DNA of 16,419 nt from an uncultured Deinococcales bacterium (GCA_964247135.1 CAXTTL010000060.1:5220-21638); one strand, 5' to 3'; shown: positions 55 to 16,419, counted from the first letter of the stretch. The notes: a model not told the origin generated them from the sequence alone. Made by a program: numbers and translations.

Positions 55-2106
55 ATGACCCCACCAATTGCCAAACGTCTTGATTTCGTGACCGAACTAC
101 ACGGCATTCGTCGCAATGATGAATACCACTGGTTGCGCGACAAAGAAAACCCTGAAGTGATCGAGTACCTCGAGGCAGAAAACGCGTACTTGAAGCTCAG
201 CATGACGCACCTCGAGGCTTTGGAGGAAACGCTCTACCAAGAAATGCGGGGTCGAATTCAAGAATCTGACCTTGAAGTGCCAGTTCAGGACGGGGCGTAT
301 TGGTATTACTCGAGAACCGAAGAGGGCAAACAGTACCGTGTCCATTGCCGAAAACCCGAGAATTTGGATGCGCCCGAAGAGGTATTGCTCGACCTGAACG
401 CGATAGAACAAGCCGAGCAACTCCGTTTCTTGCAATTGGGTATCTACAGTCACAGCCCAGATCACACCCTGCTGGCTTACGGCTTAAACACCGATGGCGG
501 CGAAAAATATACGATTTACATCAAACGTTTAAGTGACAACACGATCCTCGAGATTATCGAAAATGGTTATTACGGTTTTGCTTGGGCGAGCGACAACCAG
601 CATTACTTTTTCAATCGGGTCGATGCCGCCATGCGTCCGCATCAGGTGTACCGCCGCAAGCTCGGTGAGAGTCTCGAGACGCTGGTTTACGAAGAATCGG
701 ATGAGATGTTCTCGTTGGGCATCCAGCGTTCCAAGTCTGGCGCGTATTTGCAAATCGTAAGTTATGCCAAAATCACCACCGAATTTCAGATTTTACCCGC
801 CAACGAACCCTTGGGAACTTGGCAGGTTTTTGCGCCCAGGGTGCGTGCGGTGGAGTACAACTTAAGGCATTTGCCAACTCGAGGTTGGTTGGTCATCACC
901 AACGAAAACGCCGAAAACGGCAAATTGATGCTCGTGCCTGAAAGCAACACCACAGCCCAGAACGCGACTCGAGAAAACTGGACGGAGTGGTTAGCACACG
1001 ATCAAAATCGTTTGATCGAAGCGGTGTATCCCTTCGATCAACACCTGGTCATTTGGGGACGCGAAGCAGGATTCACGCAACTTTGGGTTCAATCTCTCGA
1101 GGATCAAAACCTGCGCCGAATTCCCATGCCAGACGCGGTGTACACAATTTACCCAGGCGATAACCCAATGATGGATTCCAACGTTTTTCGCTGCCAATAC
1201 ATCAGTTTGGTACAACCGCGCCAAGTCCTCGAGATCAACCTATCAAACCTCGAGCGTCGCGTTTTCAAAGAAGAACCCGTGCTGGGTGGTTTTGACAAAA
1301 CCCAGTACGTCACCGAACGACTCGAAGCCACCTCACACGACGGCACAATTATTCCCATCAGTTTGGTCTACAAAAAAGGGGCACTCGAGCGTGGGGCGAC
1401 GGGATTGTACCTGTACGGTTACGGCGCTTACGGTTTCAGCATGGACCCGTACTTCTCGAGCAACAACCTTTCGCTCTTGGATCGTGGAATGATTTTTGCG
1501 GTAGCTCACGTGCGCGGTGGGCAAGAACTCGGGCGGCATTGGTACGATCACGGCAAATGGCTCGAGAAGAAAAATTCGTTTCTGGACTTTATTGCCTGTG
1601 CCGAGCACTTGCAAAAGATCGGTTACACCAGCCCCGAAAAACTGGCGATCTCGGGCGGCAGCGCTGGCGGTTTGTTGGTCGGTGCAACCGTCACGATGCG
1701 TCCAGATTTGTGCCAAGTTGTGGTTGCCAGCGTGCCATTCGTCGATGTTTTGAACACCATGCTCGACTCGAGTTTGCCTTTGACCGTGGGCGAATACGAT
1801 GAATGGGGCAACCCAAACGAACTCGAGTATTACCAGTACATGGCGTCGTATGCGCCTTATGAAAACACAAAACTAGCCGCTTACCCACACATTTTTGCCA
1901 CCGCAGGTTTGAACGACCCCAGGGTTTCGTACCACGAACCCGCGAAATGGGTGGCGAAATTGCGGGTGCAAAACACGGGCGATAACAGCATTGTGTTGCG
2001 CACCAACATGGGCGCAGGGCATGGTGGCTCGAGCGGCAGGTTTGAGCGTTTGCGTGAAGTGGCGAACGAATTTGCGTTTGTGCTCGATAAACTTGGACTT
2101 GCTTAA
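55..2106 (+). CDS. ptrB: Oligopeptidase B (protease II), peptidase S9A family
   Basis: 683 aa. N-terminal HGIRRNDEYHWLR, LYGYGAYG, AHVRGG, nucleophile GGSAGG, GLNDPRV (Asp) and GAGHGG (His) complete the S9 catalytic triad. Confidence 0.95.
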   Translation: MTPPIAKRLDFVTELHGIRRNDEYHWLRDKENPEVIEYLEAENAYLKLSMTHLEALEETLYQEMRGRIQESDLEVPVQDGAYWYYSRTEEGKQYRVHCRKPENLDAPEEVLLDLNAIEQAEQLRFLQLGIYSHSPDHTLLAYGLNTDGGEKYTIYIKRLSDNTILEIIENGYYGFAWASDNQHYFFNRVDAAMRPHQVYRRKLGESLETLVYEESDEMFSLGIQRSKSGAYLQIVSYAKITTEFQILPANEPLGTWQVFAPRVRAVEYNLRHLPTRGWLVITNENAENGKLMLVPESNTTAQNATRENWTEWLAHDQNRLIEAVYPFDQHLVIWGREAGFTQLWVQSLEDQNLRRIPMPDAVYTIYPGDNPMMDSNVFRCQYISLVQPRQVLEINLSNLERRVFKEEPVLGGFDKTQYVTERLEATSHDGTIIPISLVYKKGALERGATGLYLYGYGAYGFSMDPYFSSNNLSLLDRGMIFAVAHVRGGQELGRHWYDHGKWLEKKNSFLDFIACAEHLQKIGYTSPEKLAISGGSAGGLLVGATVTMRPDLCQVVVASVPFVDVLNTMLDSSLPLTVGEYDEWGNPNELEYYQYMASYAPYENTKLAAYPHIFATAGLNDPRVSYHEPAKWVAKLRVQNTGDNSIVLRTNMGAGHGGSSGRFERLREVANEFAFVLDKLGLA

Positions 2107-2109
2107 AGT

Positions 2110-2141
2110 TTAAATCACATCTCGAATTGAAATCTTTTTCG
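2110..2141 (-). repeat. Second, displaced copy of the recG 3' end (direct repeat with 3438-3469); att-like
   Basis: 2111-2132 taaatcacatctcgaattgaaa matches 3439-3460 taaatcacatcccgaattgaaa at 21/22, and 27/31 when extended. The minus strand reads KISIRDVI*, against recG QVSIRDVI*. Confidence 0.85.
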
Positions 2142-2297
2142 ATTCGGGTTCTTTTTGTATTTGTACAATTTCGATTCGACATATTTCTCATTGCTTGCAC
2201 TTTGTATAGCTGACACGATAGAATTTCGTAATAGCTGTATCTCAGCTAATTTGGTCGTGACAGATTTTTAAATTTCGGTTGGTTGTTTGGAGACTCA

Positions 2298-3404
2298 ATG
2301 AGAAATAGTAAAAGCGTTTTCATTCCGTTACTGTTGGCTTTTTTCGCAATCTTTTCATGGGGTTATGGTCAAGCTGCTTCAAACGATAAACAGGCTTGGG
2401 TCAGTGTTGGGCAATTTAAATCGAGTGGAAATTTTGCGTCATGCCAAAGGTACGACCTGTCCAAACTAACCTCTACATTGCTGGTCGATCAATTAAAAGC
2501 CAGTGGTCGCTTTCGACTTTTCACCGATGAACGGATTGCAGAATTGCGCTTTGGTGGTGAAATCACATCTTGCAATATCTCAGTTTCACAAATTTTATTT
2601 GTTACAACTGTAAACATTAGCTTTTCGGTAAATATAACTGCGGTTGATATTGTTACTTCTGAGCAAATTATTAGTGAAACGGTAAAAGGTGAAACAAGTA
2701 ATTCAAACATTAGTCTTATTGGTAATTTTGTTAGCGATGCAGACTTCAAAAGTGCAATTGAAGGTGTTTTTAAAGAAAAAATTCCTCAACTTGTGAATGG
2801 AAAAGAGTTGTTGCCTTATATGACTCATATTTTGGGCGAGCGTCCAACGTTGCCAGCAACTACGACAAACCCAAACACTCAAACACCAAATCCAACACCT
2901 ATTGTTGCGCCTACGCCGCCGAATAATGCCGCTACTTCAACAAGTGTTACTTCGGCAATTGATGCAATGTTTAATGGATTAAAAAATATGGACTTTAATT
3001 CTTTTAATAACAGCTTAAGCGATAATTTATTAAATCTCTCGAGTATTGGAAACCTTTCTCAATATGCGACACCTGAGAATAAAAGCATTTCGAGTAAAAT
3101 TACTTATTTCGTTCAATCTGTTCAGGATTTCCAAAACGCCTATACAGTTGTAGACCTCCTCGTAATAATTCCGACAAGTGCGGGGGCTTCAACTACAAAA
3201 AACTACAAAATCGGTGTTATAGATACAGGCGGAAATTTATCTCAAGCCTTTCCCAATAGAAAAAATCAAGGTTTAAAAATTCTTTTCTTGGATAAAATCA
3301 ATCCATTGCGAGGAATACCTCAATTGCCAATCTTTAATAGCTCGAGTGAGGCTGTAGAACAACTCCTCAAAGATTTTAACGCTGCGCTTGGAATAAATTT
3401 GTAA
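2298..3404 (+). CDS. Secreted hypothetical protein: CsgG/HfaB-like N-terminal domain, Pro/Thr linker, unknown C-terminal domain
   Basis: ATG 2298 follows GGAGA (2289-2293), so it is preferred over the ORF-track start at 2283. Signal peptide ends near GQA-A. VSVGQF..LVDQLKASGRFRLF..GEITS..VNITAVDIVTSEQIISETVKG resembles the CsgG/TolB-N fold. Low-complexity linker PATTTNPNTQTPNPTPIVAPTPP. Confidence 0.7.
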   Translation: MRNSKSVFIPLLLAFFAIFSWGYGQAASNDKQAWVSVGQFKSSGNFASCQRYDLSKLTSTLLVDQLKASGRFRLFTDERIAELRFGGEITSCNISVSQILFVTTVNISFSVNITAVDIVTSEQIISETVKGETSNSNISLIGNFVSDADFKSAIEGVFKEKIPQLVNGKELLPYMTHILGERPTLPATTTNPNTQTPNPTPIVAPTPPNNAATSTSVTSAIDAMFNGLKNMDFNSFNNSLSDNLLNLSSIGNLSQYATPENKSISSKITYFVQSVQDFQNAYTVVDLLVIIPTSAGASTTKNYKIGVIDTGGNLSQAFPNRKNQGLKILFLDKINPLRGIPQLPIFNSSSEAVEQLLKDFNAALGINL

Positions 3405-3475
3405 AACCAAAAAACTCGAGTGAAACAGGTTCAACTTCTAAATCACATCCCGAATTGAAACCTGTTCCGCTCGAG
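3403..3475 (-). terminator. Long hairpin overlapping the recG stop, followed by a U-tract; probable intrinsic terminator
   Basis: Arms 3415-3434 (ctcgagtgaaacaggttcaa) and 3455-3475 (ttgaaacctgttccgctcgag) pair with 18 Watson-Crick pairs, 1 G-U, 1 mismatch and 1 bulge. The minus strand continues TTTTTTGGTTTT. Confidence 0.6.
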
Positions 3476-5780
3476 CTTGCAATTCCACCTTTAACAGCGC
3501 ATTCACGGGTTTCTCGAGCATTGGGTCTTGCTCGAGAATCTGTTTTGCCAAATTCCGGGCTTGTTCGATGATTTCGGTATCTCGAGTCAGATCACCCAGT
3601 TTTAAGTCGGGCATTCCGCTTTGTCGTGTGCCGCGCAGTTCGCCTGGTCCGCGAAGGCGCAAGTCGGCTTCGGCAATCTTAAAACCGTCGGTTGTGCCTT
3701 CAATCACTTTCAGGCGTTCTTTGGTTTTTTTGCTGTGATCGCCCGCAATCAAAACGCAATAACTTTGCTTGTCGCCTCGTCCGACCCGTCCGCGAAGTTG
3801 ATGCAGTTGCGACAACCCGAAGCGTTCGGCGTTTTCGATCACCATGATGCTGGCGTTGGGAACGTCCACACCGACTTCGATCACGGTGGTGCTGACGAGC
3901 AAATCAAATTCAGATGCGCGAAAACGGTTCATGATCGCGTCTTTTTCGCTGGGGTGCATTTTGCCGTGCAAAAGTTCCACTCGAGCGTCGGGCAGAATTT
4001 GTTTGAGGTCTTCACTCAGTTGCGTGGCTGCCAGAATCTCGGTCATTTTTTCGGATTCTTCGATGAGTGGCGCGACCACAAAAGCCTGCCGTCCCTCGAG
4101 AATCTGTTTCATCACAAAGCTGTACGCTTGACGGCGGTGCGTGTCCATTAAAAGTTTGGTTTGAATCGGCGTGCGACCTGGTGGCAGTTCGTCGATGGTC
4201 GTCAGCTCGAGGTCACCGTAAGCCGTCAGCGCGAGGCTGCGCGGGATGGGCGTGGCGCTCATCACAAGCACGTCAGGACGGTTTGCGAGGAGGGCGCGGC
4301 GTTGTTGCACCCCAAAGCGGTGCTCCTCGTCCACCACAGCCAAGCCAAGGCGTGCAAATTCGACGCCTTCCTGGATCAGTGCCGACGTGCCAACGATCAC
4401 ATCGACCTCGCCTTTTTTGATGCGCTCTCGAGCCTCCACGCGTTCTTTGCCGGTCATCGCGCCGATCAGCAACTCGACCCGAACCCCAAGCGGGTACAAG
4501 TATTTGGTGAGGCTCGAGAAATGTTGTCGCGCCAGAATTTCGGTGGGAGCCATCAACGCGCCTTGAAATCCATCTCGAGTCGCCAAGTACAGGGCGCTGG
4601 CAGCCACGGCGGTTTTGCCCGAACCGACATCACCTTGAATCAATCGCGCCATCTGTTTGGGTTCGCGCATGTCGGCGGCAATCTCGAGAATCGCGCGGCG
4701 TTGAGCGTTTGTGAATTTGAAAGGCAGCATCCGTTCAAACTCGAGCATGTGCTCATCCAAGGCGCGAAATTGTTTGCCCTCCAAACTGTTGCCGCCCTGC
4801 AACAGCATCCGAAGCTCGAGGAATAAGTATTCGTCAAATTTCAGGCGCTCGAGTGCCGTTTCCAAGTCCTCGAGTTCACTGGGATTGTGTGCTTCACGCA
4901 AGGCTTGGGGGTAAGGCATGATCTTGTACATGCCGCGTTGCTGGCTCGAGAGAAAATCTTGGGGTTCGGGTAATGCCTCGAAGGTTTGACGTGTAACCTT
5001 GCGAATGAACGCTTGCGAGATGCCTTCGGTGGTGTGATACACGCCAATGATTCGGTCAGTGCTGAAACTCTCGCCGCCCTCATCGTCATTTTCGAAATAC
5101 TCGACACCAAGCTCGAGCTTGCGCCCAAATCGTTTGGCTTTGCCCGTGATGATCAGGCGGTTGCCCTCTTTCAGTTGTCCTTCGACCCAAGGTTGATTAA
5201 ACCAAGTGGCTGACAGCACATTGCCGAATTCGTCACGCAAGTTCGCCTTCAAAATCAACATGCCTTTGCGCGGCGAATGACGGGTTTTGTCCGTCACCGC
5301 GCCGACCACCGTCACTCGAGCGCCGTCTTCTATCGTGTGAAACCCGGGCAGTCGGCGGCGGTCTTCGTAACGTCTGGGGTAATTGTGGAACATGTCCCGC
5401 AAGGTTTTGATGCCAAGTCGAGCCAGTTTTTTTGGCGCACTCGGCACAAGTGGCAACCTGGTGATTTCCGAATCTGGTGTGAACGTCGTGCGCTCGAGCC
5501 TGGGAAGCTCGGGTTTTCTGGCTTGCACGGGTTTGGCGTTCGAGGTTGGTTTTCGTTCCGCCTCGAGCAAATCCAGCGCGGTTCGTAAATTTTCTGCGCG
5601 TTCCTCAAGGCTCATGATGCCGTAACCGTCCAGCACTTCCCGAACCTTGGGGAACGGTTGCGCCACATTGTTTAAAAGCGCCTCGAGTCCTGCCGTGACC
5701 ACACGGTTCTGACAGCCCATCGCCAATTCTCGCTCGAGGGGTTTCATCAGTCGTTCGCGCAGTTCATCGCGGGTTGGCAC
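3438..5780 (-). CDS. recG: ATP-dependent DNA helicase RecG
   Basis: 780 aa. Wedge domain ([14 protein letters not shown]), [63 protein letters not shown] and RGPGE..GTRQSG. GTG start. Confidence 0.98.
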
Positions 5781-5786
5781 GGTGAT

Positions 5787-5792
5787 AGTTTA
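5787..5792 (-). promoter_or_regulatory. -10 box TAAACT, 6 nt before recG GTG (leaderless)
   Basis: Minus strand reads TAAACT atcacc GTG. Confidence 0.65.
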
Positions 5793-5813
5793 CCCTGAAT
5801 CCAAAATGATTTC

Positions 5814-5839
5814 GTAGGGGTAAACCTTGTGTTCACCCT
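5814..5839 (+). repeat. GTAG-type REP-like palindrome
   Basis: GTAG-GGGTAAAC-CTTGT-GTTCACCC-T: a GTAG tetranucleotide followed by an imperfect palindrome with one mismatch, in intergenic DNA. Confidence 0.55.
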
Positions 5840-5885
5840 TTATGGCACAACGATTTTTTATGTTTTGCATCAAGAATCTCGAGCA

Positions 5886-6704: not shown

Positions 6705-6716
6705 ACCTCGAGTTTA
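6705..6716 (-). promoter_or_regulatory. Leaderless -10 TAAACT overlapping CTCGAG (GNAT gene)
   Basis: Minus strand reads TAAACT cgaggt ATG. Confidence 0.65.
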
Positions 6717-6752
6717 CAAACTTTGAAGCTCGAGTGTCACACGCCAAAGTGC

Positions 6753-7271
6753 TTATTGAATTGGGCTGAGCGTGGTTTCACGCAGTTGCACCAGACTCGA
6801 GTACCTTGTAATGGTATCGGTGCTTTGGGTTAGCTCGAGCTTGCCTGTAATCCTGATTTTTTCGCCTGTGGTCGGCAGTTTTTGACCGTTTGCCAAGTAC
6901 ACGAATACGCTGTCGGTCGAGACTGGCACGGCTTCAGTGTCCGCGTTCGGAAAAATCACGGTGATCGAACTCGGGTAATCCGCACTTTCATCGCACGGCG
7001 AGCAGACGGTTTTGCGTGTTCTGGTCAGTACAAAACGGTCTGGAATGTTCGGGTCGCTGGCTGCGAAACCCGTCAGTGTGACCAAATTTCCTCGCAACCC
7101 GAGCGTCTGTTTCGCATACACCGCGCCCCGTTCGTTGATGCTCGAGAACAGTTTTGGAATCTCGAGTTTGACGGCAGGTTTTTCTGGTTTTGAGAATGCG
7201 AAAGTGCTGATTGCTGCAATAATCGCGGCAATCAGCACCAGGGCGAAGATGTTATTTACTTTGGTTGGCAT
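6753..7271 (-). CDS. Membrane-anchored or exported hypothetical protein with CxxC; OB-fold-like (DUF3299/DUF1980-like)
   Basis: N-terminal hydrophobic segment, VTLTGF..FVLTR..CSPC and [12 protein letters not shown]. Overlaps the phosphatase 3' end by 20 bp, suggesting an operon. Family call is from pattern resemblance only. Confidence 0.65.
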
Positions 7272-9054
7272 TTAAGCCCATCGCTTGCGCAATTGTGAAG
7301 AAAATATCGGTTTGGTCCATGCTGCCTTGGAAGAGTTTTGCGCCAGGTCCAAAGGCGAACAGCGGCACTGGGTCGGCGGTGTGAACGCCCTGCGATTGGT
7401 CTTTGGGGAGGTTGCCGATGCGTTGGAACGCGCCTGGTTCGGAGCAGACCTTGGGGTTCGGGATAAAGCCGCCCTTGCCGTCAGAAATCGTCGGTGCTTG
7501 ATAGATTTCGCGCCCGACATAGGTTTCGCAGTAATCGGGGTGAGCGCCAAAACCGACCGCCAACCCTCGAGCCGCCACGGGCAGTGGAATGCCGTTTTGA
7601 TCCAGTTTTTCGTAGTAATTCGGGAAGCCCGCTTTTTCGTAGACCTGTGCCGCATCGCGGTTGCCAGGACCTTTGCTGGTGTCGTAGCCACCAAAGACCG
7701 TGAGGCTGTGACCGTGGTCGGCGGTCACGATAATCAGGGTGTCGTCGCGTTTGGCAGCCCATTCTTTTGCCAGTTTCACGGTCTTGTCAAGCTCGAGCAC
7801 GTCGAACATGGCGCGTGTCCAGTCGAGTGGGTGCAGGTACTTGTCCACCATGCCCGCCTCGACCATCAAGAAAAACCCTTTGTCGTTTTTCTCCAAGCTC
7901 GAGATGGCAGAATTGGTCATGTCCCACAGGTACGGCAGGTCGGTGAAATTGCCGAGCATTTCGGGGCGTTTCCAGGTGGCACGGTCCAAATAGCTTGGGA
8001 AGTTATCGAGGTGGAACAAGCCGAACAACTTGTCTGGAGCGCCAGCTTTCAACAAATCTGTGCGGTTGTTGACAAACGTATAACCCTGTTTTTGCGATTC
8101 GGTAATCCAGTCGGTCGCATCTTTGCGCCTCGAGCCGCCAGCGGTGCTCGGAATAAAGTCTTCCGACCCGCCGAACATCAGCACGTCCGGTTTGACATTG
8201 CCCTTAAAGTATTGATCGGCAATCGAACTGTAATCGCCGCGCCTGCGGGTGTGCGTAGCGAAGGCAGCGGGGGTCGCGTCCGTACCAAAAACATTGCTGA
8301 CGATGCCGACGCTCGCGCCTCGGGTGCGCTTCAAGATTTCAGTAATGATCTCGGCTCGAGGGTTGTCGAGCGTGTCTGGGGAGTTGTCGCGGTAAACATT
8401 CAGCGCGTTGACTTCTGCTTTTTGACCTGTCGCGATGCTGGTGGCGCTGTTGGCGCTGTCCACAATGTAGGAGTCAAAACTGCTGGTCGAAATGCTCGCC
8501 ATGCCGTCTGCGCCCGATTCCATCTCGAGCTTGCCGCGCGGCATTCCGTTGGCTGGGTTGTAACCCTTGGCGATCACCTGGGCGCCGTGCATGGTGTTCC
8601 AACTCATGCCGTCGGCAATAAACAAGATCACGTTCTTGGCGGGTTTGAGTGGACGGGTGGTGACGACGCCAGTCCAGTTGATTTTTTTGGTGACTTCGCC
8701 CTTGGCGTCAGTAAGTTTGACAAGCACTTCGTTCGCGCCGCCCCGCGCCGAAATATTGCGCAGCGTCCATTCCGCTTGACCGGCGCCCTGCGAGGTTTGC
8801 ACAAAATCGGTCAACACTTTTCCGTTCAAAGTGATGGTGTAATTCTTCAAATCCTCGAGCTTTGAGGCTTCGACCCGCAAATCCACGTGTTGCCCCGCCA
8901 ACAGCTTCGCGCCGTCGTAAGGGTAAACGTTGATGTCCGCTTCACTCGGGGCGCCGAGTGCCGAAACCACGGTGGCAGCGATGGGCAGCAGCACCAGTGG
9001 ATACCAATTCTTGAAGTTGGTTTTCACATGGTTAGTCTGGAACGGTTTTGTCAA
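7252..9054 (-). CDS. phoA: Alkaline phosphatase (PhoA family) with extra N-terminal beta-rich domain
   Basis: [18 protein letters not shown] (catalytic Ser), [32 protein letters not shown] and GVHTADPV, plus a signal peptide. Start is uncertain: TTG 9054 or GTG 9027. Confidence 0.92.
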
Positions 9055-9064
9055 CGCTTTGTCA
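9047..9064. promoter_or_regulatory. Pho-box-like direct repeat (TTTGTCA-N4-TTTGTCA, 11-bp period)
   Basis: TTTGTCA at 9047-9053 and 9058-9064, at the 5' end of phoA. Confidence 0.45.
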
Positions 9065-9206
9065 GCACGAGATCAATCATTGGCTCGAGTTTACTGAATT
9101 CAATTTGGAATCTTGATTCTCGAGATGAACCAATCTAGAACGTTCCGTGATGAGGTCAAGCGCTCAGCAGCCTAGACCTGCCTAAACTCGAGCCGCAAAA
9201 AAATGA

Positions 9207-9572
9207 TTACTTTTTAAGCTGATTGAACTGCGCGATGAAACCTGCTGGATGACGCAAGAACGCCATGTGCGTTTGGTTGCGTTCGTTGAAAAACGGTGCA
9301 GCCTCGTACTCGTAACCAGCCTCGAGTAATTCGGCACATTTGGCTTGCAGGTCATCGACTTCAAATGCCAAATGCAAAAATCCTGGTGCGGGTTGACCTG
9401 AGACTTGCACCAACTCGAGGTCCATGTTCGTTCCTGGGTGGTTGAGAAACGCGGTTGGGACTCCATTTGAGTAATGTTTGCCGCGACCCTCGACCAGAAA
9501 TCCAAGCGTGGCGAAATGGGTGATGGCGGCTTCAACATCGTGAACGCTCAATGCGAAATGATTCAGTTTCAT
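9207..9572 (-). CDS. VOC (glyoxalase/bleomycin resistance) family protein
   Basis: 121 aa. KLNHFALSVHDVEAAITHF, LELVQ, HLAFEVDDL and AFLRHPAG. Leaderless TAAACT cgagcc ATG. Confidence 0.9.
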   Translation of the reverse strand: MKLNHFALSVHDVEAAITHFATLGFLVEGRGKHYSNGVPTAFLNHPGTNMDLELVQVSGQPAPGFLHLAFEVDDLQAKCAELLEAGYEYEAAPFFNERNQTHMAFLRHPAGFIAQFNQLKK

Positions 9573-9666
9573 GGCTCGAGTTTAGCGCATACCTTGCGAA
9601 TACTCGTCCAATGGCATCCGATTCGCTGACTTGGCACGCTCGAGGGCTTCAACCAAAACGTTTTAC

Positions 9667-9696
9667 TTGACTTCATAATAAATAGTATTCTAGAAT
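9667..9696 (+). promoter_or_regulatory. Sigma70 promoter of lrp-lysE: TTGACT-N18-TAGAAT-N6-ATG (leaderless)
   Basis: -35 at 9667-9672 and -10 at 9691-9696. A perfect palindrome ATTCTAGAAT (9687-9696) overlaps the -10. Confidence 0.7.
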
Positions 9697-9702
9697 TTTA
9701 CG

Positions 9703-10179
9703 ATGGAATCTAAATTTCAAGACCTAGATCACCTTGATTTCCAAATTCTCGAGCATCTGGGCAGCAACGCTCGAGTTACCTGGACAGAACTTTCCGCTCA
9801 ACTCGGTTTGTCCGCTCCCGCCATCACCGAACGGGTACGCAAGCTCGAGGAACGTGGTGTCATCAAGAGTTATACGGTCTTGCTCGAGCCTGAATTGTTG
9901 GGTTGCGAGTTGCTGGCATTTGTGGCGGTGCAAATACCAGATGCAAAATCACGCAAAACCTTTCTCGAACGTGTGAAGGACATGCCTGAGGTGCTCGAGT
10001 GTCATCACATGTCTGGCGATGACGATTACTGGCTCAAGGTGCGCTGCGCTGGAACGAAGGCGCTCGAGAAGATCATTTCTGAAGACTTCAAATCGATCTC
10101 GAGTGGCATCAAAACCCATACCAGCATTGCGCTTTCGAGTTTTAAGGATTCGCCAAGTTTGCCGATTCGGGGAGCGTGA
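9703..10179 (+). CDS. Lrp/AsnC family transcriptional regulator
   Basis: LDHLDFQILEHL..NAR..ELSAQLGLSAPAITERVRKLEERGVI helix-turn-helix, and EVLECHHMSGDDDYWLKV ligand-binding domain. Confidence 0.95.
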   Translation: MESKFQDLDHLDFQILEHLGSNARVTWTELSAQLGLSAPAITERVRKLEERGVIKSYTVLLEPELLGCELLAFVAVQIPDAKSRKTFLERVKDMPEVLECHHMSGDDDYWLKVRCAGTKALEKIISEDFKSISSGIKTHTSIALSSFKDSPSLPIRGA

Positions 10180-10793
10180 TGGATTTCGCGTTTTTCCTCA
10201 AAGGCTTTTTGATTGGCATTTCAATTGCCGCGCCCGTCGGTCCAATCGGCTTGCTGACCATCCGCCGCACCTTAGCGTTTGGGCGTATCGCGGGCTTCAT
10301 GTCTGGTTTGGGTGCGGCAACGGCGGACGCGGTGTTTGGCAGCATCGCGGCGTTTGGCATCACCGCCATCTCGAGCGTTCTGATTGGGGCGAAATTTTAT
10401 TTGGGGCTGGTTGGCGGTATTTTTCTGGTCTATTTGGGTTGGCAAACTTTCGTCTCCAAACCCGTCGAGCGAGCCGCCGAATCTCGAGCATCAAGTCTGG
10501 GTGTGATTTATGCTTCGACCTTTGCGCTTGTCCTGACCAACCCGATCAGCATTTTGTATTTCACGGCAATCATCTCGAGCGTCGGCGCGGCTGGAAATTT
10601 GCTCAGTGCGAGTTTTATGGTGTTTGGTGTGTTCCTGGGTTCGGTGTCGTGGTGGTTTTTCCTGAGTTTTATTGCCGGTTTGCTCAAATCTCGAATCAAT
10701 CCAACAAGTTTAAAACTCGTCAATCAAGTCTCAGGCTTTGTGATTGCCGCGTTTGGGCTTTGGGCTGTCGCCAGCGTGTTATTCAAAATCTAA
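10176..10793 (+). CDS. LysE/RhtB family amino-acid exporter
   Basis: GISIAAPVGPIG, GLGAATAD, FALVLTNP and GVFLGSVSWW. Start overlaps the Lrp stop (GTG 10176 or ATG 10179). Confidence 0.93.
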   Translation: MMDFAFFLKGFLIGISIAAPVGPIGLLTIRRTLAFGRIAGFMSGLGAATADAVFGSIAAFGITAISSVLIGAKFYLGLVGGIFLVYLGWQTFVSKPVERAAESRASSLGVIYASTFALVLTNPISILYFTAIISSVGAAGNLLSASFMVFGVFLGSVSWWFFLSFIAGLLKSRINPTSLKLVNQVSGFVIAAFGLWAVASVLFKI

Positions 10794-10826
10794 GCGCAAA
10801 ACAGATTCTCGAGATACACTACAGCC

Positions 10827-11909
10827 ATGCTGAATTACCTGCTCATTTTTGTCCCGATCACCGCCTTGCTCGAGTTTGTGATTCATCCTGGCGACGTCTG
10901 GATTTTTATTTCGGCGGCGCTCGCCATCGTGCCGCTGGCGGGTTTGATGGGACGCTCCACCGAGGAATTGGCGGCTCGGGCGGGCAGCGCGGTCGGTGGT
11001 TTGTTGAATGCCACCTTTGGCAATGCCACCGAGTTGATTATTGCGTTTTTTGCGCTTCAAGCCGGTAAAATCGATGTGGTCAAAGCCAGCATCACGGGTT
11101 CGATGATTGGCAATTTGCTGCTTGTTTTGGGCATGGCGGTGTTTTTGGGCGGTCTGAAATTTCCAGTCCAGCGTTTTAACCGTCAAGCCGCCAGTTCGCT
11201 GGCGAGCATGTTGGTGATTTGCATCATTGCTTTTTTGATTCCGGCGATGTTCGATTTTACCGAGCGCGTCAATGGCATTCCTGGAACGCAACAAATTCTT
11301 TCCGATGGGCAGCTTTCGCTGGCGGTCAGTTTTGTTTTGATTGCCCTGTATGTCTTAAACATGGTCTTTAGTTTGTTCACCCACAAAGACATGCTCTCGA
11401 GTGCCGATGACGACGCTGATACCCACAAAGCCGAATGGACTCCGGCTCGAGCCATCGGCACGTTGTTTGCTTGCACCATCGTGGTCGCTTGGCTCTCCGA
11501 GGTGCTGGTCGGGTCGCTCGAGGGGTTCACGGCGGCGCTGGGGTTCTCAGAATTTTTTGCCGGTTTAATCATCATTCCAATTATTGGCAACGCTGCCGAG
11601 CACGCGGCAAGCGTGTTTGCCCGAAAGAACAAAATGGATTTGACCATCACGATTGCGATTGGGGCAACCATTCAAATTGCGCTGCTGGTCGCGCCGCTGC
11701 TGGTGATTTTGTCGTTTGTCATTGGCAAACCAATGGATTTGGTGATTCACAGCCCGCTCGAGTTGATGGCGTTGGTCGGCGCGGTCGGTATCGTCGGCAG
11801 TGTCGCCAGGGACGGCGAAACCAACTGGCTCGAGGGTGCGATGCTGCTGGGCGTGTATTTGATTATGGCAATCGCGTTTTTCTTTTTGCCTGTTGCCTCT
11901 CACAGTTAA
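10827..11909 (+). CDS. cax: Calcium/proton exchanger (CAX, CaCA family)
   Basis: Alpha-repeats GLLNATFGNATE and IIGNAAEH, plus GSMIGNLLLVLG and DGETNWLEG. Leaderless TACACT acagcc ATG. Confidence 0.94.
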   Translation: MLNYLLIFVPITALLEFVIHPGDVWIFISAALAIVPLAGLMGRSTEELAARAGSAVGGLLNATFGNATELIIAFFALQAGKIDVVKASITGSMIGNLLLVLGMAVFLGGLKFPVQRFNRQAASSLASMLVICIIAFLIPAMFDFTERVNGIPGTQQILSDGQLSLAVSFVLIALYVLNMVFSLFTHKDMLSSADDDADTHKAEWTPARAIGTLFACTIVVAWLSEVLVGSLEGFTAALGFSEFFAGLIIIPIIGNAAEHAASVFARKNKMDLTITIAIGATIQIALLVAPLLVILSFVIGKPMDLVIHSPLELMALVGAVGIVGSVARDGETNWLEGAMLLGVYLIMAIAFFFLPVASHS

Positions 11910-11932
11910 CTTGCCTGTTGCCTCTCACAGTT
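11886..11932 (+). repeat. Perfect 22-bp tandem duplication (period 25) of the cax 3' end
   Basis: ttgcctgttgcctctcacagtt at 11886-11907 and 11911-11932, separated by aac. Confidence 0.95.
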
Positions 11933-12010
11933 CAGCGTCAAGCTTCAAAACCTGCCAAAGCTCAACATTTCATGAATCTCAATCGGGCGCTCCTCGGGTA
12001 GACTCGGGTC

Positions 12011-12637
12011 ATGCGCTTCAATTGGAGGCACATTTTGAGTTTATTTCTTCTAAGCTGCTCTGGATTGGCGGCTTTGGCTCAAGTGCTGGTGTTTGAAGAT
12101 TCGTTCGACCAGGAAGGTATTTGGGACTCGAGAAACCTGAATGTCGGGCATTTTGGTTACGAAAACGGTTGGTTTCAGATTTTCATTGACAAACCCGACA
12201 GTTTTATTTACGTGCCCGCGCCGGTGCTGCCCGCCAAAGATGTCAGGCTCGAGGTGGACATTTCCAAGCGTTCGGGCGCAGCCTCCGATGAGGCTGGGGT
12301 GTTTTGCCGCCTTCAACTCGAGGGTGGGCATTACGAGCTGATGTTTAGCAGCGAAGCCCGAACCAGCGCGATTTACCGCGTCAGTGGCGACGAGTATGTG
12401 GCAATTGGACGTGCGGTGCTGCCGCCCGAAATCAAACTCAATGCTGGGGAAAAACCAAACCATTTGCGTGCCGAATGCGTGGGTTCAAAGTTACGTTTGT
12501 TTGTCAACGATTGGTTGACGCTCGAGGCGCAAGACAGCAATTTCGAGGGTGGTTGGGTCGGGTTGGCGGCTGGGACTGGAACGAAGGTCACGCAATTGAC
12601 CGCCGATTTTGATAATTTCAAATTGTTTGTGCTTTAA
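12011..12637 (+). CDS. Exported beta-sandwich protein, DUF1080/LamG-like
   Basis: Signal peptide, then FEDSF..W, DVRLEVD, AGVFCR, NHLRAECVGSKLRLFVND, GWVGL and ADFDNFKL. Leaderless TAGACT cgggtc ATG. Confidence 0.72.
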   Translation: MRFNWRHILSLFLLSCSGLAALAQVLVFEDSFDQEGIWDSRNLNVGHFGYENGWFQIFIDKPDSFIYVPAPVLPAKDVRLEVDISKRSGAASDEAGVFCRLQLEGGHYELMFSSEARTSAIYRVSGDEYVAIGRAVLPPEIKLNAGEKPNHLRAECVGSKLRLFVNDWLTLEAQDSNFEGGWVGLAAGTGTKVTQLTADFDNFKLFVL

Positions 12638-12655
12638 ATCGGTTAAAATTTGCCA

Positions 12656-12694
12656 ATGCGCCCTCCGACCAAGCTCGAGTTTGACCCTTCATGA
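12656..12694 (+). CDS. Putative leaderless leader peptide [12 protein letters not shown], coupled to trmD
   Basis: TAAAAT (12644-12649)-N6-ATG. Its TGA overlaps the trmD ATG as ATGA. trmD itself shows neither a Shine-Dalgarno nor a -10 at N6. Confidence 0.45.
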
Positions 12695-13476
12695 AAATCT
12701 CTTTGCTGACTTTGTTCCCGCAGCTTTTAACGCCCTGGCTGAATGAGGCTATTTTGGGGCGTGCGGTTAAAAACGGTTTACTCGAGTTTGATGTGCGTGA
12801 TATTCGCAATGCCGCCAGCGACAAGCACCGCATGGTCGATGACACGCCCTACGGCGGCGGCGCTGGCATGGTTTTAAAAGTCGATGTGCTTGAAAATGCC
12901 CTGAAGATGCTCGAGCCAAGCGACGAGATTGTCTTGTTGACGCCGGCAGGGGAGAAGTTTGCGCAAAAAATGGCAGAGGAATTCTCTAAAAAGCGGCATC
13001 TTGTGTTGTTGTGCGGGCGGTATGAGGGTTTTGATGCGCGGATTGAAACCCTGGTCACGCGCGAGGTCAGCCTTGGCGATTTTGTCATGATGGGTGGCGA
13101 GGCGGCGGCGTTGTGTGTGGTCGAGGCGGTCACGCGGCTTGTGCCCGGCGTTCTCGGCGATTCTGATTCCCATGAGCAGGATTCTTTCTCGAGCGGCATT
13201 CTGGATTACCCAGAGTTTACCCGTCCACCAGTTTGGAATGGTTTGGAAGCCCCCGAAATTTTGCGCGGCGGCAACCATGCCGCCATTGCCATTTGGCGAC
13301 GCCGTGAGGCGCTGCGGCGCACCTTGGAGCGCCGACCCGATTTGATCGAGCGGGCGGGTTTGACTGCTCAAGATTCGGCATTGCTGCTCGAGTTGGGCGT
13401 GACCTTGGAGCAGCTCATCGATTGGAACCTCGAGCTTCCACCGCCGCCAAAGGTCAAGCGCACAAGAATTCAGTAG
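12691..13476 (+). CDS. trmD: tRNA (guanine37-N1)-methyltransferase
   Basis: [60 protein letters not shown] and GNHAAI..WR. Confidence 0.98.
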
Positions 13477-14264
13477 TCTTTTAAGAAATCCTTTGCCACC
13501 TTCAAAGCGCGAGGTTCGTCGGCTGCCAGTCGCCCTTCAATCGCGATCAGACCATCAAATTGTGCCAGCAGTTTCGGTACAAGTGTTGACAATTCCAAAT
13601 CACCCTCGCCCAAAAGCGCGTGGGTTTTCCCTGGGCTGGAATCGCTCAAATGCGAGTGAAGCATTTTTGGAGTCTGGTGAATGTACTCGAGCGGTTTGCC
13701 CAGGGTTCCAGCGTGGGCGATGTCCAAAGTGATGCCAACGTGCTCCAGCGGCTCGAGGATGCTGGCGAGTCGGGTCAGGCTTTCTAGATGGGTGACAAAT
13801 TGCAATTTCTTTTTTTCCATCCCCTCGACGCCAACCCGAACCCCGAACATTCCCGCCGCCGAGTCGAGATCGCCGACAAAATCGTGCAGGCGCTCCCAAT
13901 AGACTTGTTCATCGTCGGTGGTGCTCGACAAATGCCCAGGATGCACCACGACCATGCCAGCGCCCATTCTGGCGGCTGTCTCGAGCGAAGAAAGCACCTG
14001 ATGCCTCGAGATGGCACGTATTTCGGGGTTGCTCGAGAGTGGATTGAGGTCATAACTCGGGGCATGAAGAGAAAGTTGCAGACCAAGATTTTCGGCTTTG
14101 GCACGAACTTCCTCTGGGCTGGCGTTCGATTCCCAGAGGTGTTGCGCCCAAACCTCAGACGCGCCAAAGCCCGCATCTTTGATCAACTCGAGTGCACCGA
14201 GCACTCCAGAATGCCATAAAAGGCGGGTTGCGGGGGCGAAACGGGGGTTGATGCTCAAAGTCAC
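13470..14264 (-). CDS. Sugar phosphate isomerase/epimerase family (xylose-isomerase-like TIM barrel)
   Basis: LSLHAP..N, VVVHPG, VGVE, LDIAHA, HSHLSD, H..LGEG and IAIE metal-site pattern. Leaderless TAAAAT aaaagc GTG. 7-bp convergent overlap with trmD. Confidence 0.88.
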
Positions 14265-14305
14265 GCTTTTATTTTACGGTCTGGCTTGCGGTTCATTTGT
14301 CAGCT

Positions 14306-14413
14306 TGCTCGAGTTTGGGTATGCACTTAAGTTTGAGTTGGACTTGGTGTCACAAAAGTATTTCGTATTTGATGTCGTTTTACAGATTCACTGCTCGAGT
14401 CTAAGGATGCAGT
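14306..14413. repeat. Imperfect 22-bp direct repeat pair containing CTCGAG
   Basis: 14306-14327 tgctcgagtttgggtatgcact against 14392-14413 tgctcgagtctaaggatgcagt, 17/22 identical. Confidence 0.5.
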
Positions 14414-14601
14414 CTTTGTGATAGGGCATATTCATCGGCGAGATACGTTCCAGACTTTGATCACCAGAATTCATGTTTTGACTGGATAACAATTAAATAT
14501 GAGTATAATTGGTCAATACGTGTAGTTAAAAATACAATGGATAAGTGATTTGTGTAGCGAATGTGAGTTTTTTGTAAGATTTTTTACTTTACAATACTTG
14601 A

Positions 14602-15861
14602 GTGATAAATAGCGTTCGGTTTCTTAAAATTGGTTTTGTATTGACCACCATAGCGGCGCTTGTTCCCCTGGGACGGGGCGCAGCCTTCTGGTCAACTTCA
14701 GAATTGCAGACCATCGAATCGTTACGATTGGATTCAAAGGGCAGCGTTTCAGCCGACCCAACAAATACAGTTGCGAACAATGCACAAGCGGCAAACATCG
14801 GTTACAAGTTGTTTTACGACAAACGCCTCAGTTCGGAGGGCGATGTTGCCTGCGCCACCTGCCACAATCCAGAAAAAACCTTCACCGATGGCAAAATCCT
14901 TTCCGAAGGCGTTGGCAGAACCAATCGCAATGCCCCAACGATTGTTGGCGCTTCGCACAACACCTGGCAATTTTGGGATGGACGGGCAGATTCATTGTGG
15001 CAACAGGCGTTAGGACCACTGGAAAACGCCAACGAACACGGATTTTCGCGGGTCGCTGTCGCCAAACTTGTCGCCAAACAATACCGTAGCGAATTTGAAA
15101 CTGTTTTTGGACCCATGCCAGATTTTGAAGACGATTATCGCTTTCCAGAAAACGCCACGCCGTTAGGCGACAGCGATGCACTAAACGCTTGGAAACAAAT
15201 GAACGAATCTGATCGCGCCTATGTCAACACGGTCTTTGTTAATGTCGGTAAATCAATCGAGGCGTTTGAGCGCCAAATTCAACCAGGATTCTCGAGGTTC
15301 GATCAGTACGCGCAATCCCTGAGCAAAGGGACAAACTCCGATGATCTCAACGCCACTGAAATCTCGGGTTTGCGGCTTTTCATTGGCAAAGCAGGTTGTG
15401 CCACTTGTCACACTGGAAGCCAATTCAGCGACGGGAAATTTCACAACACTGGTGTGCCACGAAACCCGGATACACCACTCGATCAGGGTCGTCAAGAGGC
15501 GATGGGCAACCTTTTTAAAGGCGAATTTTCTTGCAAAAGTACCTTCAGTGATGCAATCGAGGCTTGCCCCAAAAATTTCCAAGCCTCCACCGATGCGCAG
15601 TTGATCCGTGCCTACAAGACGCCGTCGTTGCGGACAGCCGCCATGACCGCACCATACATGCACGCTGGACAATTTGCCACACTGACACAAGTCATTGCCC
15701 ACTACCGAGATGCCCCCAAAGCGCCACTTGGAACCAGCGAGATCAAACCATTGTCACTGACCAACCAAGAAATGCTCGAATTGGAACAGTTTATTAAAAG
15801 TTTAAACGCGCCGATTGATGCGCCAGTTAAATTTTTGCACCCACCGCTCGAGGGCAATTGA
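14602..15861 (+). CDS. Di-heme cytochrome c peroxidase/MauG superfamily protein
   Basis: Two CATCH heme motifs, LFYDKRLS, RNAPT, QFWDGRA, YKTPSLR and APYMHAG, with an N-terminal signal segment. Leaderless TACAAT acttga GTG. Confidence 0.92.
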   Translation: MINSVRFLKIGFVLTTIAALVPLGRGAAFWSTSELQTIESLRLDSKGSVSADPTNTVANNAQAANIGYKLFYDKRLSSEGDVACATCHNPEKTFTDGKILSEGVGRTNRNAPTIVGASHNTWQFWDGRADSLWQQALGPLENANEHGFSRVAVAKLVAKQYRSEFETVFGPMPDFEDDYRFPENATPLGDSDALNAWKQMNESDRAYVNTVFVNVGKSIEAFERQIQPGFSRFDQYAQSLSKGTNSDDLNATEISGLRLFIGKAGCATCHTGSQFSDGKFHNTGVPRNPDTPLDQGRQEAMGNLFKGEFSCKSTFSDAIEACPKNFQASTDAQLIRAYKTPSLRTAAMTAPYMHAGQFATLTQVIAHYRDAPKAPLGTSEIKPLSLTNQEMLELEQFIKSLNAPIDAPVKFLHPPLEGN

Positions 15862-16085
15862 TCCGTTAAGCTTATTTTTTCGCTTCCAATGCCGATTTTT
15901 GACTCGAGCTTTGAAAATTCTGTTGTAAATTCATTTGACCTGTTGGATATATGTTCAGGGTTGTTTGAACTGAAAATGTGTCGGTTTCTGGCATGTACAG
16001 TCAGAATGAACAAATCTAAAAGTATCTAAAAGATATTATGCACAATACAGCCAGATTAAATTTGTGGGTAAAAGAAAGGTTTTTT

Positions 16086-16419
16086 ATGAAAAAAATATTG
16101 TTTGTTTTATTTGCCATTTGCTCGAGCGTCGCCAGCGCCGCCCCATTTGTATTTCCTAAGAATTGGACGGTTTCACAACCAGCTCAAGAAGAAACTGGGG
16201 GAACGTTGCGCGATTTTATCACCCAGGATTATCAAACTTACAATCCATTTACCGATGTCTCCGCTGCGGGAAATGGTGTTGGAAGCGTCGTTAATGCTCG
16301 AGGATTGTTTATTCAAGACCCAATTACGGGTGAAAACTTGCCCTATATGGCAGAATCTTACTCGATTTCTGCAAATAAGCTGAACTGGACGATTAAAGTA
16401 CGCCAAGGCATGAAATGGT
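16086..16419 (+). CDS. ABC transporter peptide-binding protein, family 5 (OppA/DppA-like); 5' part only, runs off the window
   Basis: Absent from the ORF track; translated by hand as MKKILFVLFAICSSVASAAPFVFPKNWT..GGTLRD..TYNPF..GLFIQDPITGENLPYMAESYSIS..WTIKVRQGMKW. AAGG Shine-Dalgarno at 16076-16079. Confidence 0.9.
   Translation, partial: MKKILFVLFAICSSVASAAPFVFPKNWTVSQPAQEETGGTLRDFITQDYQTYNPFTDVSAAGNGVGSVVNARGLFIQDPITGENLPYMAESYSISANKLNWTIKVRQGMKW

Follow-up and report, generated by a model that had tools for sequence, protein, structure and literature searches.

The hexamer CTCGAG occurs at very high density throughout the genome of an uncultured Deinococcales bacterium, where it is almost certainly subject to an active fixation bias that operates at the level of DNA. 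The genome is represented by assembly G000 (5.09 Mb, 386 contigs, G+C content (GC) 52.7%, 84% complete), and the stretch analysed here in full, called the window, comprises 16,419 bases of its contig C60. An initial annotation of the window, made from the sequence alone, had estimated about 110 copies of CTCGAG, or one per ~150 bp and roughly 25-fold more than expected, and had likened the word to HIP1 (GCGATCGC), the highly iterated palindrome (HIP) of cyanobacteria. Exact counting gives 111 copies, beginning with the one at 169-174 and ending with the one at 16297-16302. Among 200 dinucleotide-preserving shuffles of the window the mean is 3.04 copies (standard deviation 1.70, maximum 8), and 0 of the 200 reach 111.

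169 to 16302 (no strand): span with all 111 CTCGAG sites, 6.8 per kb (count and shuffles)

This enrichment extends over the whole genome. Assembly G000 carries 33,925 copies (6.66 per kb, one per 150 bp), the poorest contig still has 2.56 per kb, and just 1 of 2,358 two-kb windows is free of sites. CTCGAG is the most frequent hexamer, more than twofold ahead of runners-up that are its own overlapping fragments, and its observed-to-expected ratio (O/E) is 24.8, 35.2, 14.4, 3.45, and 1.24 under Markov models of order 0, 1, 2, 3, and 4, respectively. The order-4 model is judged uninformative because about 88% of CTCGA 5-mers have G as the next base, such that the model already contains the motif. 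No other palindrome of the form NTCGAN is enriched (ATCGAT has an O/E of 0.96, TTCGAA 0.12, and GTCGAC 0.09), and the mirror word GAGCTC has 0 copies. Thus, CTCGAG displays the genome-wide excess of at least 15-fold for a short GC-rich palindrome that is typical of HIPs. The estimates of the initial annotation are confirmed by these counts, and its two provisos, that the signal might be limited to the window or matched by other words containing TCGA, can be dismissed. Of the two genome-wide null models it had suggested, codon shuffling leaves the excess in place, as described below, whereas the order-4 Markov model absorbs it.

Sites are distributed among all reading frames and between genes. 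For a set of 4,186 crude genes (greedy open reading frames (ORFs) scored by codon usage, so that sequence counted as intergenic includes some missed short genes), CTCGAG is observed 17,220, 4,116, and 6,294 times in frames 0, 1, and 2, compared to 3,042, 301, and 548 times after synonymous codons were shuffled within each gene. This null preserves the protein sequence and the codon usage of each gene, and is itself raised by the effect of the motif on codon usage, yet the excess by frame is 5.7- to 13.7-fold. Coding DNA carries 6.6 sites per kb and intergenic DNA 6.9. As with HIPs, sites therefore lie both within and between genes and are unexplained by codon or peptide usage. The word spells 77.5% of the 22,208 Leu-Glu pairs, whereas outside this context CTC accounts for 15.3% of the codons for Leu and GAG for 32.6% of those for Glu. 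Leu-Glu is also over-used in the proteome more than any other dipeptide (O/E 2.37, versus 1.02 for Glu-Leu). In loci flanking recG its O/E is 2.19 in the family of the window, 1.10 in Deinococcus, and 1.36 in Trueperaceae. Ser-Ser is over-used alike in all three groups (O/E ~1.5), and its excess is therefore unrelated to the motif. Overall, these data support the conclusion that a genome-wide process acts on the DNA word and that codon and amino-acid usage cannot account for it, as had been proposed from the window.

Alignment with relatives reveals the same force at work. When 211 kb of a congener (G005) was aligned to G000 at 85.9% identity, 80.3% of 1,508 sites in G000 and 85.6% of 1,414 sites in G005 were identical in the partner, compared to 47.4% of all hexamers. 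At codons whose amino acid is unchanged, CTC is kept in 92.4% of cases before GAG versus 57.9% elsewhere, GAG in 94.1% after CTC versus 73.4% elsewhere, TCG in 94.8% inside the motif versus 73.5%, and CGA in 83.3% inside the motif versus 62.5%. Intergenic sites are kept in 79.6% of cases (n = 226), versus 48.9% for control hexamers. Intergenic and genic sites are therefore retained to a similar degree, and synonymous positions are affected as well. Conservation between relatives beyond background is another property shared with HIPs. A DNA-level force thus cuts site-breaking substitutions by about 3- to 5-fold, in coding and non-coding DNA alike.

These results bear directly on the simplest alternative, which is that CTCGAG abundance is a passive by-product of codon usage, amino-acid composition, or restriction-driven avoidance of other palindromes. 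Many palindromes are indeed strongly avoided in G000, where 28 of 64 palindromic hexamers have an O/E below 0.1. Furthermore, high-GC genomes (Trueperaceae and one actinomycete locus) are mildly rich in both CTCGAG and GAGCTC through their Leu-Glu and Glu-Leu codons, and the order-4 Markov O/E of 1.24 can be read in the same sense. This explanation is nevertheless very improbable. It is refuted by the equal coding and intergenic densities, by the frame-specific excess that survives synonymous shuffling, and by the conservation of synonymous and intergenic site positions far beyond background. Also, it does not fit the complete absence of GAGCTC or the O/E values of 0.09 to 0.96 for the other NTCGAN palindromes.

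Although sites are well retained, they also turn over. A codon alignment of 21 recG sequences contains 49 site columns, 45 of them used by 13 family genes that carry 9-21 sites each, and a single column is common to all 13. Many recG sites fall where Deinococcus has other residues, such as LEF versus NRF or LER versus AAP. In an alignment of six genomes of the genus (10.8-16.5 kb per genome, pairwise identity 85-89%, star-like tree), 150 site columns were found, of which 70 are present in all genomes, 34 are missing from one, 15 occur in one only, and 31 are intermediate. Columns lost in one genome mostly show a single transition. The singleton gains are few events, considered here without a formal neutral-model test; they have cleanly aligned flanks and differ from the sister hexamers at 1-4 positions. 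For example, CTCGAG in G004 stands against CAATGG in four genomes and CAACTG in a fifth, and CTCGAG in G000 stands against TTCTCA in its sisters. At one position, the sister genomes hold the graded series CCCTGG, CTCGGG, CTCGAG. New sites are thus built up step by step where none existed before, even when this alters the encoded amino acids, and density is held while individual positions drift. Reciprocal gains 13-60 bp from a loss number 47, compared to 30.7 under a divergence-weighted null and 25.6 under a Poisson null, which is suggestive of local compensation of losses by nearby gains. The proposal that a genome-wide process creates or retains the site is therefore borne out by both retention and gain.

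The unit on which this process acts is a bare 6-bp word that is scattered almost at random over genes, spacers, and mobile islands. Intergenic flanks favour certain bases weakly and symmetrically (A 0.42 at -3, G 0.35 at -1, C 0.36 at +1, T 0.42 at +3), and base preference equals background more than 3 bases from the hexamer. Extension of palindromic arms around sites matches chance geometric decay. Spacing between sites is near geometric (coefficient of variation 0.96) and carries only the period-3 signal of coding DNA. A spacing of 6, which would form GAGCTC, is absent in G000. Gaps above 300 bp are fewer than in a geometric distribution (3,586 versus 4,406), with a slight deficit at 300-500 bp, and counts per 2-kb window are over-dispersed (variance 18.8, mean 13.3). 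Windows with a GC of 0.3-0.4 hold 5.8 sites per 2 kb and those with a GC of 0.5-0.55 hold 13.6. This dependence roughly follows the prediction from base composition, and low-GC islands are enriched by a similar factor. Relative to genes, density rises to 12.6 per kb over the 25 bp that follow stop codons and drops to 5.4 per kb where genes begin (first 25 bp). Despite the peak after stop codons, the idea that sites serve as terminator stems was rejected, given that palindromic arms are no longer than chance.

The same anatomy makes it extremely improbable, more so than any other explanation weighed here, that the sites are copies of a small mobile or repeated element carrying CTCGAG. Repeats resembling repetitive extragenic palindromes or miniature inverted-repeat transposable elements (REP/MITE-like), ~75-100 bp long and present in many copies, do exist in these genomes. 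However, the flank preference is weak and lies within 3 bases of the hexamer, palindromic arms are at chance, spacing is near geometric, and most sites fall in frame inside conserved genes. The flank and palindromic-arm analyses refute this reading.

As a separate observation, each of the six genomes G000-G005 contains dozens of copies of dispersed repeats of ~75-100 bp with 80-97% identity, which are probably REP/MITE-like elements. Examples lie at locus L128.

G005:C6, ~3650-3724, 7098-7173, 7229-7460, and 11300-11400: dispersed repeat examples

Within the window, the sites can be followed gene by gene. The features that illustrate their distribution, assigned by Pfam and by site counts, are the following.

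55 to 2106 (+): prolyl-oligopeptidase (ptrB-like) gene, 16 sites in all three frames (Pfam, frame count)
2283 to 3404 (+): CTCGAG-poor ORF of 373 amino acids, GC 0.37, without a Pfam match, 2 sites (Pfam search, counts)
3438 to 5780 (-): recG gene, 22 sites, 14 of them Leu-Glu, 6 in frame 1, and 2 in frame 2 (Pfam, counts)
9055 to 9702 (no strand): stretch separating the phosphatase gene from lrp, not covered by the 12 main ORFs, 7 sites (counts)
9703 to 10179 (+): lrp/asnC-type regulator gene, 7 sites, 14.7 per kb (Pfam, counts)
14602 to 15861 (+): di-haem cytochrome c peroxidase gene, 2 sites, 1.6 per kb, GC 0.50 (Pfam, counts)

In the ptrB-like gene, 10 sites are in frame 0 (Leu-Glu), 2 in frame 1 (PTRG, ATRE), and 4 in frame 2 (YSR, FSS, DSS, GSS). 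CTCGAG encodes 14 of the 17 Leu-Glu pairs of recG and 5 of the 6 in the lrp gene. The gene-level details of the initial annotation, namely all three frames in ptrB and five of six Leu-Glu pairs in lrp, are therefore exact. Outside the 12 main ORFs lie 19 of the 111 sites, including those that start at 9084, 9119, 9187, 9321, 9414, 9575, and 9639 in the stretch before lrp. A mechanical ORF list places two overlapping putative minus-strand ORFs of 118 and 121 amino acids in this stretch, which may be coding in part. The largest site-free gap (2034-3037) falls inside the 373-amino-acid ORF and its upstream spacer, and the second largest (14400-15290) is at the peroxidase gene. The presence of just 2 sites in the 373-amino-acid ORF fits its low GC, since low-GC windows of the genome are likewise poorer in sites.

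Two additional observations concern these site-poor genes. A congener locus aligns with the window from position 2153 onward at 84% identity, and the 373-amino-acid ORF therefore did not arrive very recently. Among the normal-GC genes of the window, site density is lowest in the di-haem cytochrome c peroxidase gene.

The phylogenetic distribution of the trait is uneven. The nearest RecG loci in public genomes belong to metagenome-assembled genomes (MAGs) labelled 'Deinococcales bacterium', in agreement with the phylum guessed in the initial annotation; no 16S rRNA gene was found in the G000 MAG, and taxonomic placement is taken from RecG loci. In 16 loci whose RecG is at least 72% identical (GC 0.44-0.60), CTCGAG occurs at 4.7-9.0 per kb (O/E 15-33) and GAGCTC 0 to 2 times. 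Deinococcus RecG loci carry 0 to 6 CTCGAG per locus of up to 22 kb. Those of Trueperaceae have ~1.3 per kb with GAGCTC about equally common, which is the ordinary codon effect of high GC.

Counts across 363 Deinococcales genomes (with genome sizes rounded) extend this pattern; G324, which is flagged as unpublished, supports none of the conclusions. All 19 genomes of the window's family (f1, 5 genera) have 4.3-6.8 CTCGAG per kb. In a sister family, the genus with the most genomes (g7, with 111, presumably Deinococcus) does not exceed 0.36 per kb; another genus of that family, g17, contains G140 at 8.6, G141 at 7.0, and G142 at 0.3 per kb. Intermediate levels are found in G022 of genus g13 (3.6 per kb), in three genera of family f5 (~1.4-3.5 per kb), and in several genera of family f2 (2-2.6 per kb, with GAGCTC strongly depleted). 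Genus g9, with genomes of ~2.2 Mb, has ~0.85 per kb and GAGCTC at an equal level. The trait is thus graded over the order, and its state has changed even inside one genus. Among viral loci matched by triple CTCGAG, the 25 densest of 80 have a GC of 0.55-0.71, mostly carry GAGCTC as well, and in no case resemble the clade.

HIPs are associated with DNA methyltransferases, and the initial annotation had pointed to an orphan methyltransferase of the XhoI/PaeR7I type as a candidate that should co-occur with the enrichment. G000 has at least 10 DNA methyltransferase genes, most of which are members of restriction-modification pairs in low-GC islands. Family searches identified the following pairs.

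Contig C14 (L084): C5 methyltransferase with NgoPII nuclease (3e-85)
Contig C178 (L085): C5 methyltransferase with Eco29kI nuclease (8e-68)
Contig C36 (L088): N6/N4 methyltransferase with PvuII nuclease (9e-67)
Contig C189 (L087): N6/N4 methyltransferase with MvaI/BcnI nuclease (4e-64)
Contig C207 (L089): N6/N4 methyltransferase with NotI-like nuclease (1e-5)
Contig C320 (L094): D12 methyltransferase with SacI-like nuclease (8e-7)

We take the recognition sites to be GGCC for NgoPII (C14), CCGCGG for Eco29kI (C178), CAGCTG for PvuII (C36), and GAGCTC for the SacI-like enzyme (C320). In G000 these words number 380 (O/E 0.02), 11, 15, and 0, respectively. GGGCCC has 1 copy and GAGCCC/GGGCTC an O/E of 0.003; the avoided word may be the degenerate GRGCYC, and the probable target of the C320 enzyme would hence extend beyond GAGCTC. 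More generally, hexamers with an O/E below 0.1 include 28 of 64 palindromes versus 160 of 4,032 non-palindromes. The resident pairs account for palindrome avoidance and leave none of these enzymes free for CTCGAG. The absence of GAGCTC had been entertained as a mechanistic mirror of CTCGAG abundance, but restriction avoidance is the simpler account, given the SacI-family nuclease beside the C320 methylase.

Other candidate writers of CTCGAG were considered and rejected. The methyltransferases of several pairs are patchy in distribution: that of C36 is in G002, G007, and G013 with part in G010, that of C178 in G001, G002, and G007, that of C207 in G006 and G009 with part in G010, and that of C320 in four of five congeners and G011. 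PF02384 proteins of ~500 amino acids in five good genomes proved to be Type I HsdM subunits with HsdS and HsdR adjoining, mutually 27-41% identical except for one closer pair at 68%. A Dam-class group of D12 enzymes (group A) is represented by orthologues in 8 of the 19 genomes of the family, where their surroundings are unrelated. The C4b methyltransferase was dismissed on account of stop codons in G005 and G012. Two G000 enzymes, C4b among them, are of the MmeI family, and NCBIfam gave the methyltransferase candidates only generic names. Among the orthologue groups tested over the family, the widest reaches 8 of 19 genomes, compared to 18 of 19 for the calibration gene ComEC.

Two of the G000 loci have features of their own. 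C4b (G000:C4:28577-29977, L158) encodes a PF01555-like methyltransferase of 466 amino acids beside a 271-amino-acid partner without a known family; its orthologues in G005 and G012 have 2 stop codons each, and this restriction-modification pair is therefore decaying. A protein of 1,499 amino acids (G000:C112:1668-6167, L081) has Eco57I and N6_Mtase matches near its front and, at a guess from its sequence, a helicase-like region behind the methyltransferase part; its contig, with 3.5 CTCGAG per kb, is among those poorest in the word.

The XhoI system itself could be traced across the order. A search for an XhoI-family nuclease matched nothing in G000, and the same search matched none of the control genomes either. 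Over the 363 Deinococcales genomes, the XhoI nuclease family PF04555 was found in 7, with 0 of 19 in the window's family and none in f3. In 6 of the 7 (G170, G156, G157, G015, G159, and G178; loci L282-L286 and L281) the nuclease gene (~240 amino acids) overlaps a convergent PF01555 methylase gene (~340 amino acids), and these cassette methylases are 64-79% identical to one another. At E<=1e-20, the cassette methylase was detected in 45 of the 363 genomes, including 13 of 23 in f4 and 24 of 32 in g9, and in 0 of 19 in f1, 0 of 3 in g17, and 0 of 1 in g13. This negative result applies to MAGs that are 57-94% complete, from which extra replicons may be unbinned, and to this enzyme family, whose specificity unrelated enzymes could share. 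The g9 homologues (62-66% identical, without an XhoI nuclease there) may be orphan methylases. An XhoI-type methylase is so neither necessary nor sufficient for enrichment, assuming that the g9 homologues keep their specificity. In the family, CTCGAG is therefore not targeted by any resident restriction-modification system of the XhoI type, and the suggested co-occurrence with an XhoI-like methyltransferase was not observed. PaeR7I-type enzymes, which we presume to be TaqI-like, were assessed solely by way of PF07669 hits, which in the single-contig genome G011 comprise only a fused enzyme of 1,111 amino acids and a Type I subunit.

These searches weigh on the possibility that methylation-directed biased repair acts on CTCGAG or TCGA, either as the ratchet proposed by Elhai or in a Vsr-like manner. 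A methyl-reading nicking or repair activity would favour the strand carrying the site, and sites would accumulate as a by-product that needs no function of its own. HIP1 and alternate HIPs are reported to co-occur with matching methyltransferases, and the ratchet model predicts a methylase together with near-miss variants at outer positions (PMC4390886). The many methyltransferase genes of G000 are compatible with such a process, which would also retain coding and intergenic sites equally, as observed. One-off loci in G000 are somewhat commoner toward the outside, with 9,573 at positions 1/6, 8,267 at 2/5, and 4,572 at 3/4. Several findings nevertheless make this explanation unlikely. Each Type II methyltransferase found in G000 with the families searched adjoins a nuclease of another family or decays in relatives, the widest orthologue group falls far short of ComEC, and the XhoI nuclease and cognate methylase were found in none of the 19 family genomes, with the methylase common in g9 and f4, which are not strongly enriched. 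No match to Vsr (PF03852) was found in G000 at 84% completeness, and the search for C5 methyltransferases found none in G008, a genome with 21,883 sites and a completeness of 91%. Partners that differ from a site at one position carry transitions in 77% of cases (207/270, versus a 59% baseline), numbering 71, 77, and 59 at positions 1/6, 2/5, and 3/4 between G000 and G005. Changes from site to one-off form are thus even over positions, with neither a single-position deamination signature nor the strong outer bias reported for HIP1. A Vsr-type version predicts one depleted deamination product, but CTTGAG/CTCAAG has an O/E of 1.17. Furthermore, gains from hexamers 2-4 changes off are unexpected if only one-off mismatches are acted on.

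A different possibility, also raised by the initial annotation, is that CTCGAG is a directly selected landing site for a nucleoid-associated, chromosome-organising, or repair protein that binds as a dimer, with selection for a high and fairly even density. Density stays at 4.3-6.8 per kb over genomes whose RecG-locus GC ranges from 0.44 to 0.60, with positions turning over. The shortage of gaps above 300 bp and the excess of compensating gains 13-60 bp from losses point the same way, and graded intermediates would fit a reader of graded affinity. For HIP1, Xu et al. drew on conservation and periodicity to argue that the word is selected and has a role in the nucleoid (PMC5861425). However, this proposal names no candidate protein, and the 2-kb counts are over-dispersed, not regular. 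Selection per site must also be very weak yet effective at ~34,000 sites, and the flip within a genus from 7.0 per kb (G141) to 0.3 per kb (G142) is odd for a core structural function. We regard it as possible but doubtful.

The reading that we favour, with a confidence that stays somewhat short of even, is that CTCGAG is a HIP-type word under fixation bias that serves as a self-DNA tag read in DNA exchange. A symmetric (dimeric) factor would read the word during uptake, processing, or recombination of own-kind DNA, and alleles carrying CTCGAG would be transmitted or repaired preferentially. The word would thereby mark self-DNA at high density, a role now also proposed for HIP1 in cyanobacteria. 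An uptake or recombination signal was likewise among the suggestions of the initial annotation. HIP1 sites are reported to increase natural transformation of Synechococcus PCC 7002 (10.1101/2024.09.10.611283), and HIP1 has been proposed to act as an uptake signal (PMC13756078). The self-DNA tag is favoured because of this experimental lead, because the graded intermediates would fit a reader of graded affinity, and because an uptake channel is present, with ComEC intact in 18 of 19 family genomes.

A number of points weigh against the self-DNA tag. ComEC is nearly universal in bacteria and its presence lends weak support, and we infer the uptake or recombination step by analogy. The HIP1 effect depends on methylation, whereas for CTCGAG no cognate methyltransferase was found in the searches described above. 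We know of no uptake specificity in Thermus and Deinococcus, the two naturally competent genera of the phylum that are well studied, and the genome groups presumed to be Thermus and Deinococcus lack CTCGAG enrichment. Known uptake sequences are 9-12 bp and non-palindromic, whereas CTCGAG is a palindrome of 6 bp and about seven times denser. Local compensation is modest (47 versus ~31) with no excess at 12 bp or less (5 versus 9.6), and the order-4 Markov null leaves an O/E of just 1.24. Finally, divergence data cannot tell direct selection from a transmission or repair bias, such that landing-site selection and a drive through uptake or recombination both fit the data.

A broader version of the self-DNA tag, which we consider rather improbable though worth stating, is that CTCGAG is the identity mark of a new system, widespread in the phylum, without a dedicated methyltransferase. 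A symmetric reader would aid uptake, recombination, or repair, the resulting drive would rewrite proteins, and the system would have been switched on and off repeatedly. Its range would run from extreme in f1, G140, and G141, through moderate in several f2 and f5 genera, to absent or counter-selected in g7.

Comparison with known systems places CTCGAG closest to the HIPs, and the parallel drawn by the initial annotation is upheld by the enrichment, by the spread over all frames and intergenic DNA, and by conservation. Like HIP1 and alternate HIPs, CTCGAG is a short GC-rich palindrome in at least 15-fold excess that is found in all frames and between genes, is conserved beyond background among relatives, and is a lineage trait with exceptions whose function is open. 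One study gives a HIP1 over-representation of 15- to 300-fold and a distribution that is periodic at 10-90 kb (PMC5861425); the largest G000 contig measured is 66 kb. The differences are that HIP1 is an 8-bp word of cyanobacteria and CTCGAG a 6-bp word of a different phylum, and that CTCGAG, unlike HIP1, visibly inflates Leu-Glu usage in proteins. According to another study, HIP sites occur about once per 1,000 nucleotides (versus one per 150 bp here), are accompanied by a matching methyltransferase, and have one-off variants mostly in either the first or the last position (PMC4390886). For CTCGAG, the cassette methylase is found in 0 of 19 family genomes, orthologue groups reach at most 8 of 19, and there is no strong outer bias.

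Other systems share fewer features. Uptake signal sequences of Pasteurellaceae and DNA uptake sequences of Neisseriaceae are non-palindromic words of 9-12 bp that occur about once per kb. Like CTCGAG, they are short genome-wide words in both orientations that lie inside genes and affect peptides, and their upkeep by molecular drive through uptake and recombination, without benefit per site, could apply to CTCGAG. CTCGAG is no such asymmetric word, however, being a 6-bp palindrome at 6.7 per kb with weak flank preferences. XhoI restriction-modification involves the same 6-bp word, and a genuine cassette of XhoI nuclease and PF01555 methylase exists in the order; its nuclease is found in 7 of 363 genomes and none of the CTCGAG-rich family, and restriction targets are normally avoided, not enriched 25-fold. 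In Escherichia coli, very-short-patch repair by Dcm and Vsr shapes the abundance of CCWGG, and Dam with GATC provides a dense methylation mark, which illustrates that a repair or methylation system can make the word it recognises more frequent. We take the density of CTCGAG to be of the same order as that of GATC in E. coli. In contrast to these systems, no Vsr was found in G000 and no universal C5 or Dam-class enzyme in the family (MutH-like genes were not searched for), and CTCGAG lacks both a depleted Vsr product and positional asymmetry.

A full-text literature search, which did not extend to subscription journals and supplementary files, found no published report of CTCGAG hyper-abundance. 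The main texts of the two HIP studies contain neither 'Deinococcus' nor 'non-cyanobacterial', and the first of them does not contain CTCGAG (PMC4390886, PMC5861425); their supplements, which lay outside the search, may list non-cyanobacterial motifs. New here are the map of the trait over the order, including the contrast inside one genus, the conservation comparisons against matched controls, the finding that the resident methylases belong to other restriction systems, and the negative test with a genuine XhoI-cassette methylase.

There are some practical consequences as well. Long stop-free antisense ORFs lie opposite genes in the window, for example one of 526 amino acids at 7285-8865 (+) opposite the alkaline phosphatase gene at 7252-9054 (-). 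CTCGAG is free of stop codons in every frame on both strands and may contribute to such ORFs, and long stop-free antisense frames are a hazard for gene callers. XhoI would yield fragments of ~150 bp if the sites are unmodified. Also, CTCGAG is usable as a lineage signature in composition-based binning and in detecting horizontal transfer for these MAGs.

For three decades HIP1 has posed an unsolved puzzle, one regarded as essentially confined to cyanobacteria. CTCGAG provides a second independent case, with another word in another phylum, that is about seven times denser and strong enough for one dipeptide to be used twice as often. If the cognate methylase is truly lacking, as it appears to be, this would separate the phenomenon from methylation-centred models of HIP1. 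A second case makes the class general and gives a comparative handle on it. Within a single order, genomes range over 8.6, 3, 0.9, and 0.01 sites per kb, and both extremes occur inside one genus; a phylogenetic profile based on this range and on the contrast of G140 and G141 with G142 could therefore pinpoint the responsible gene.

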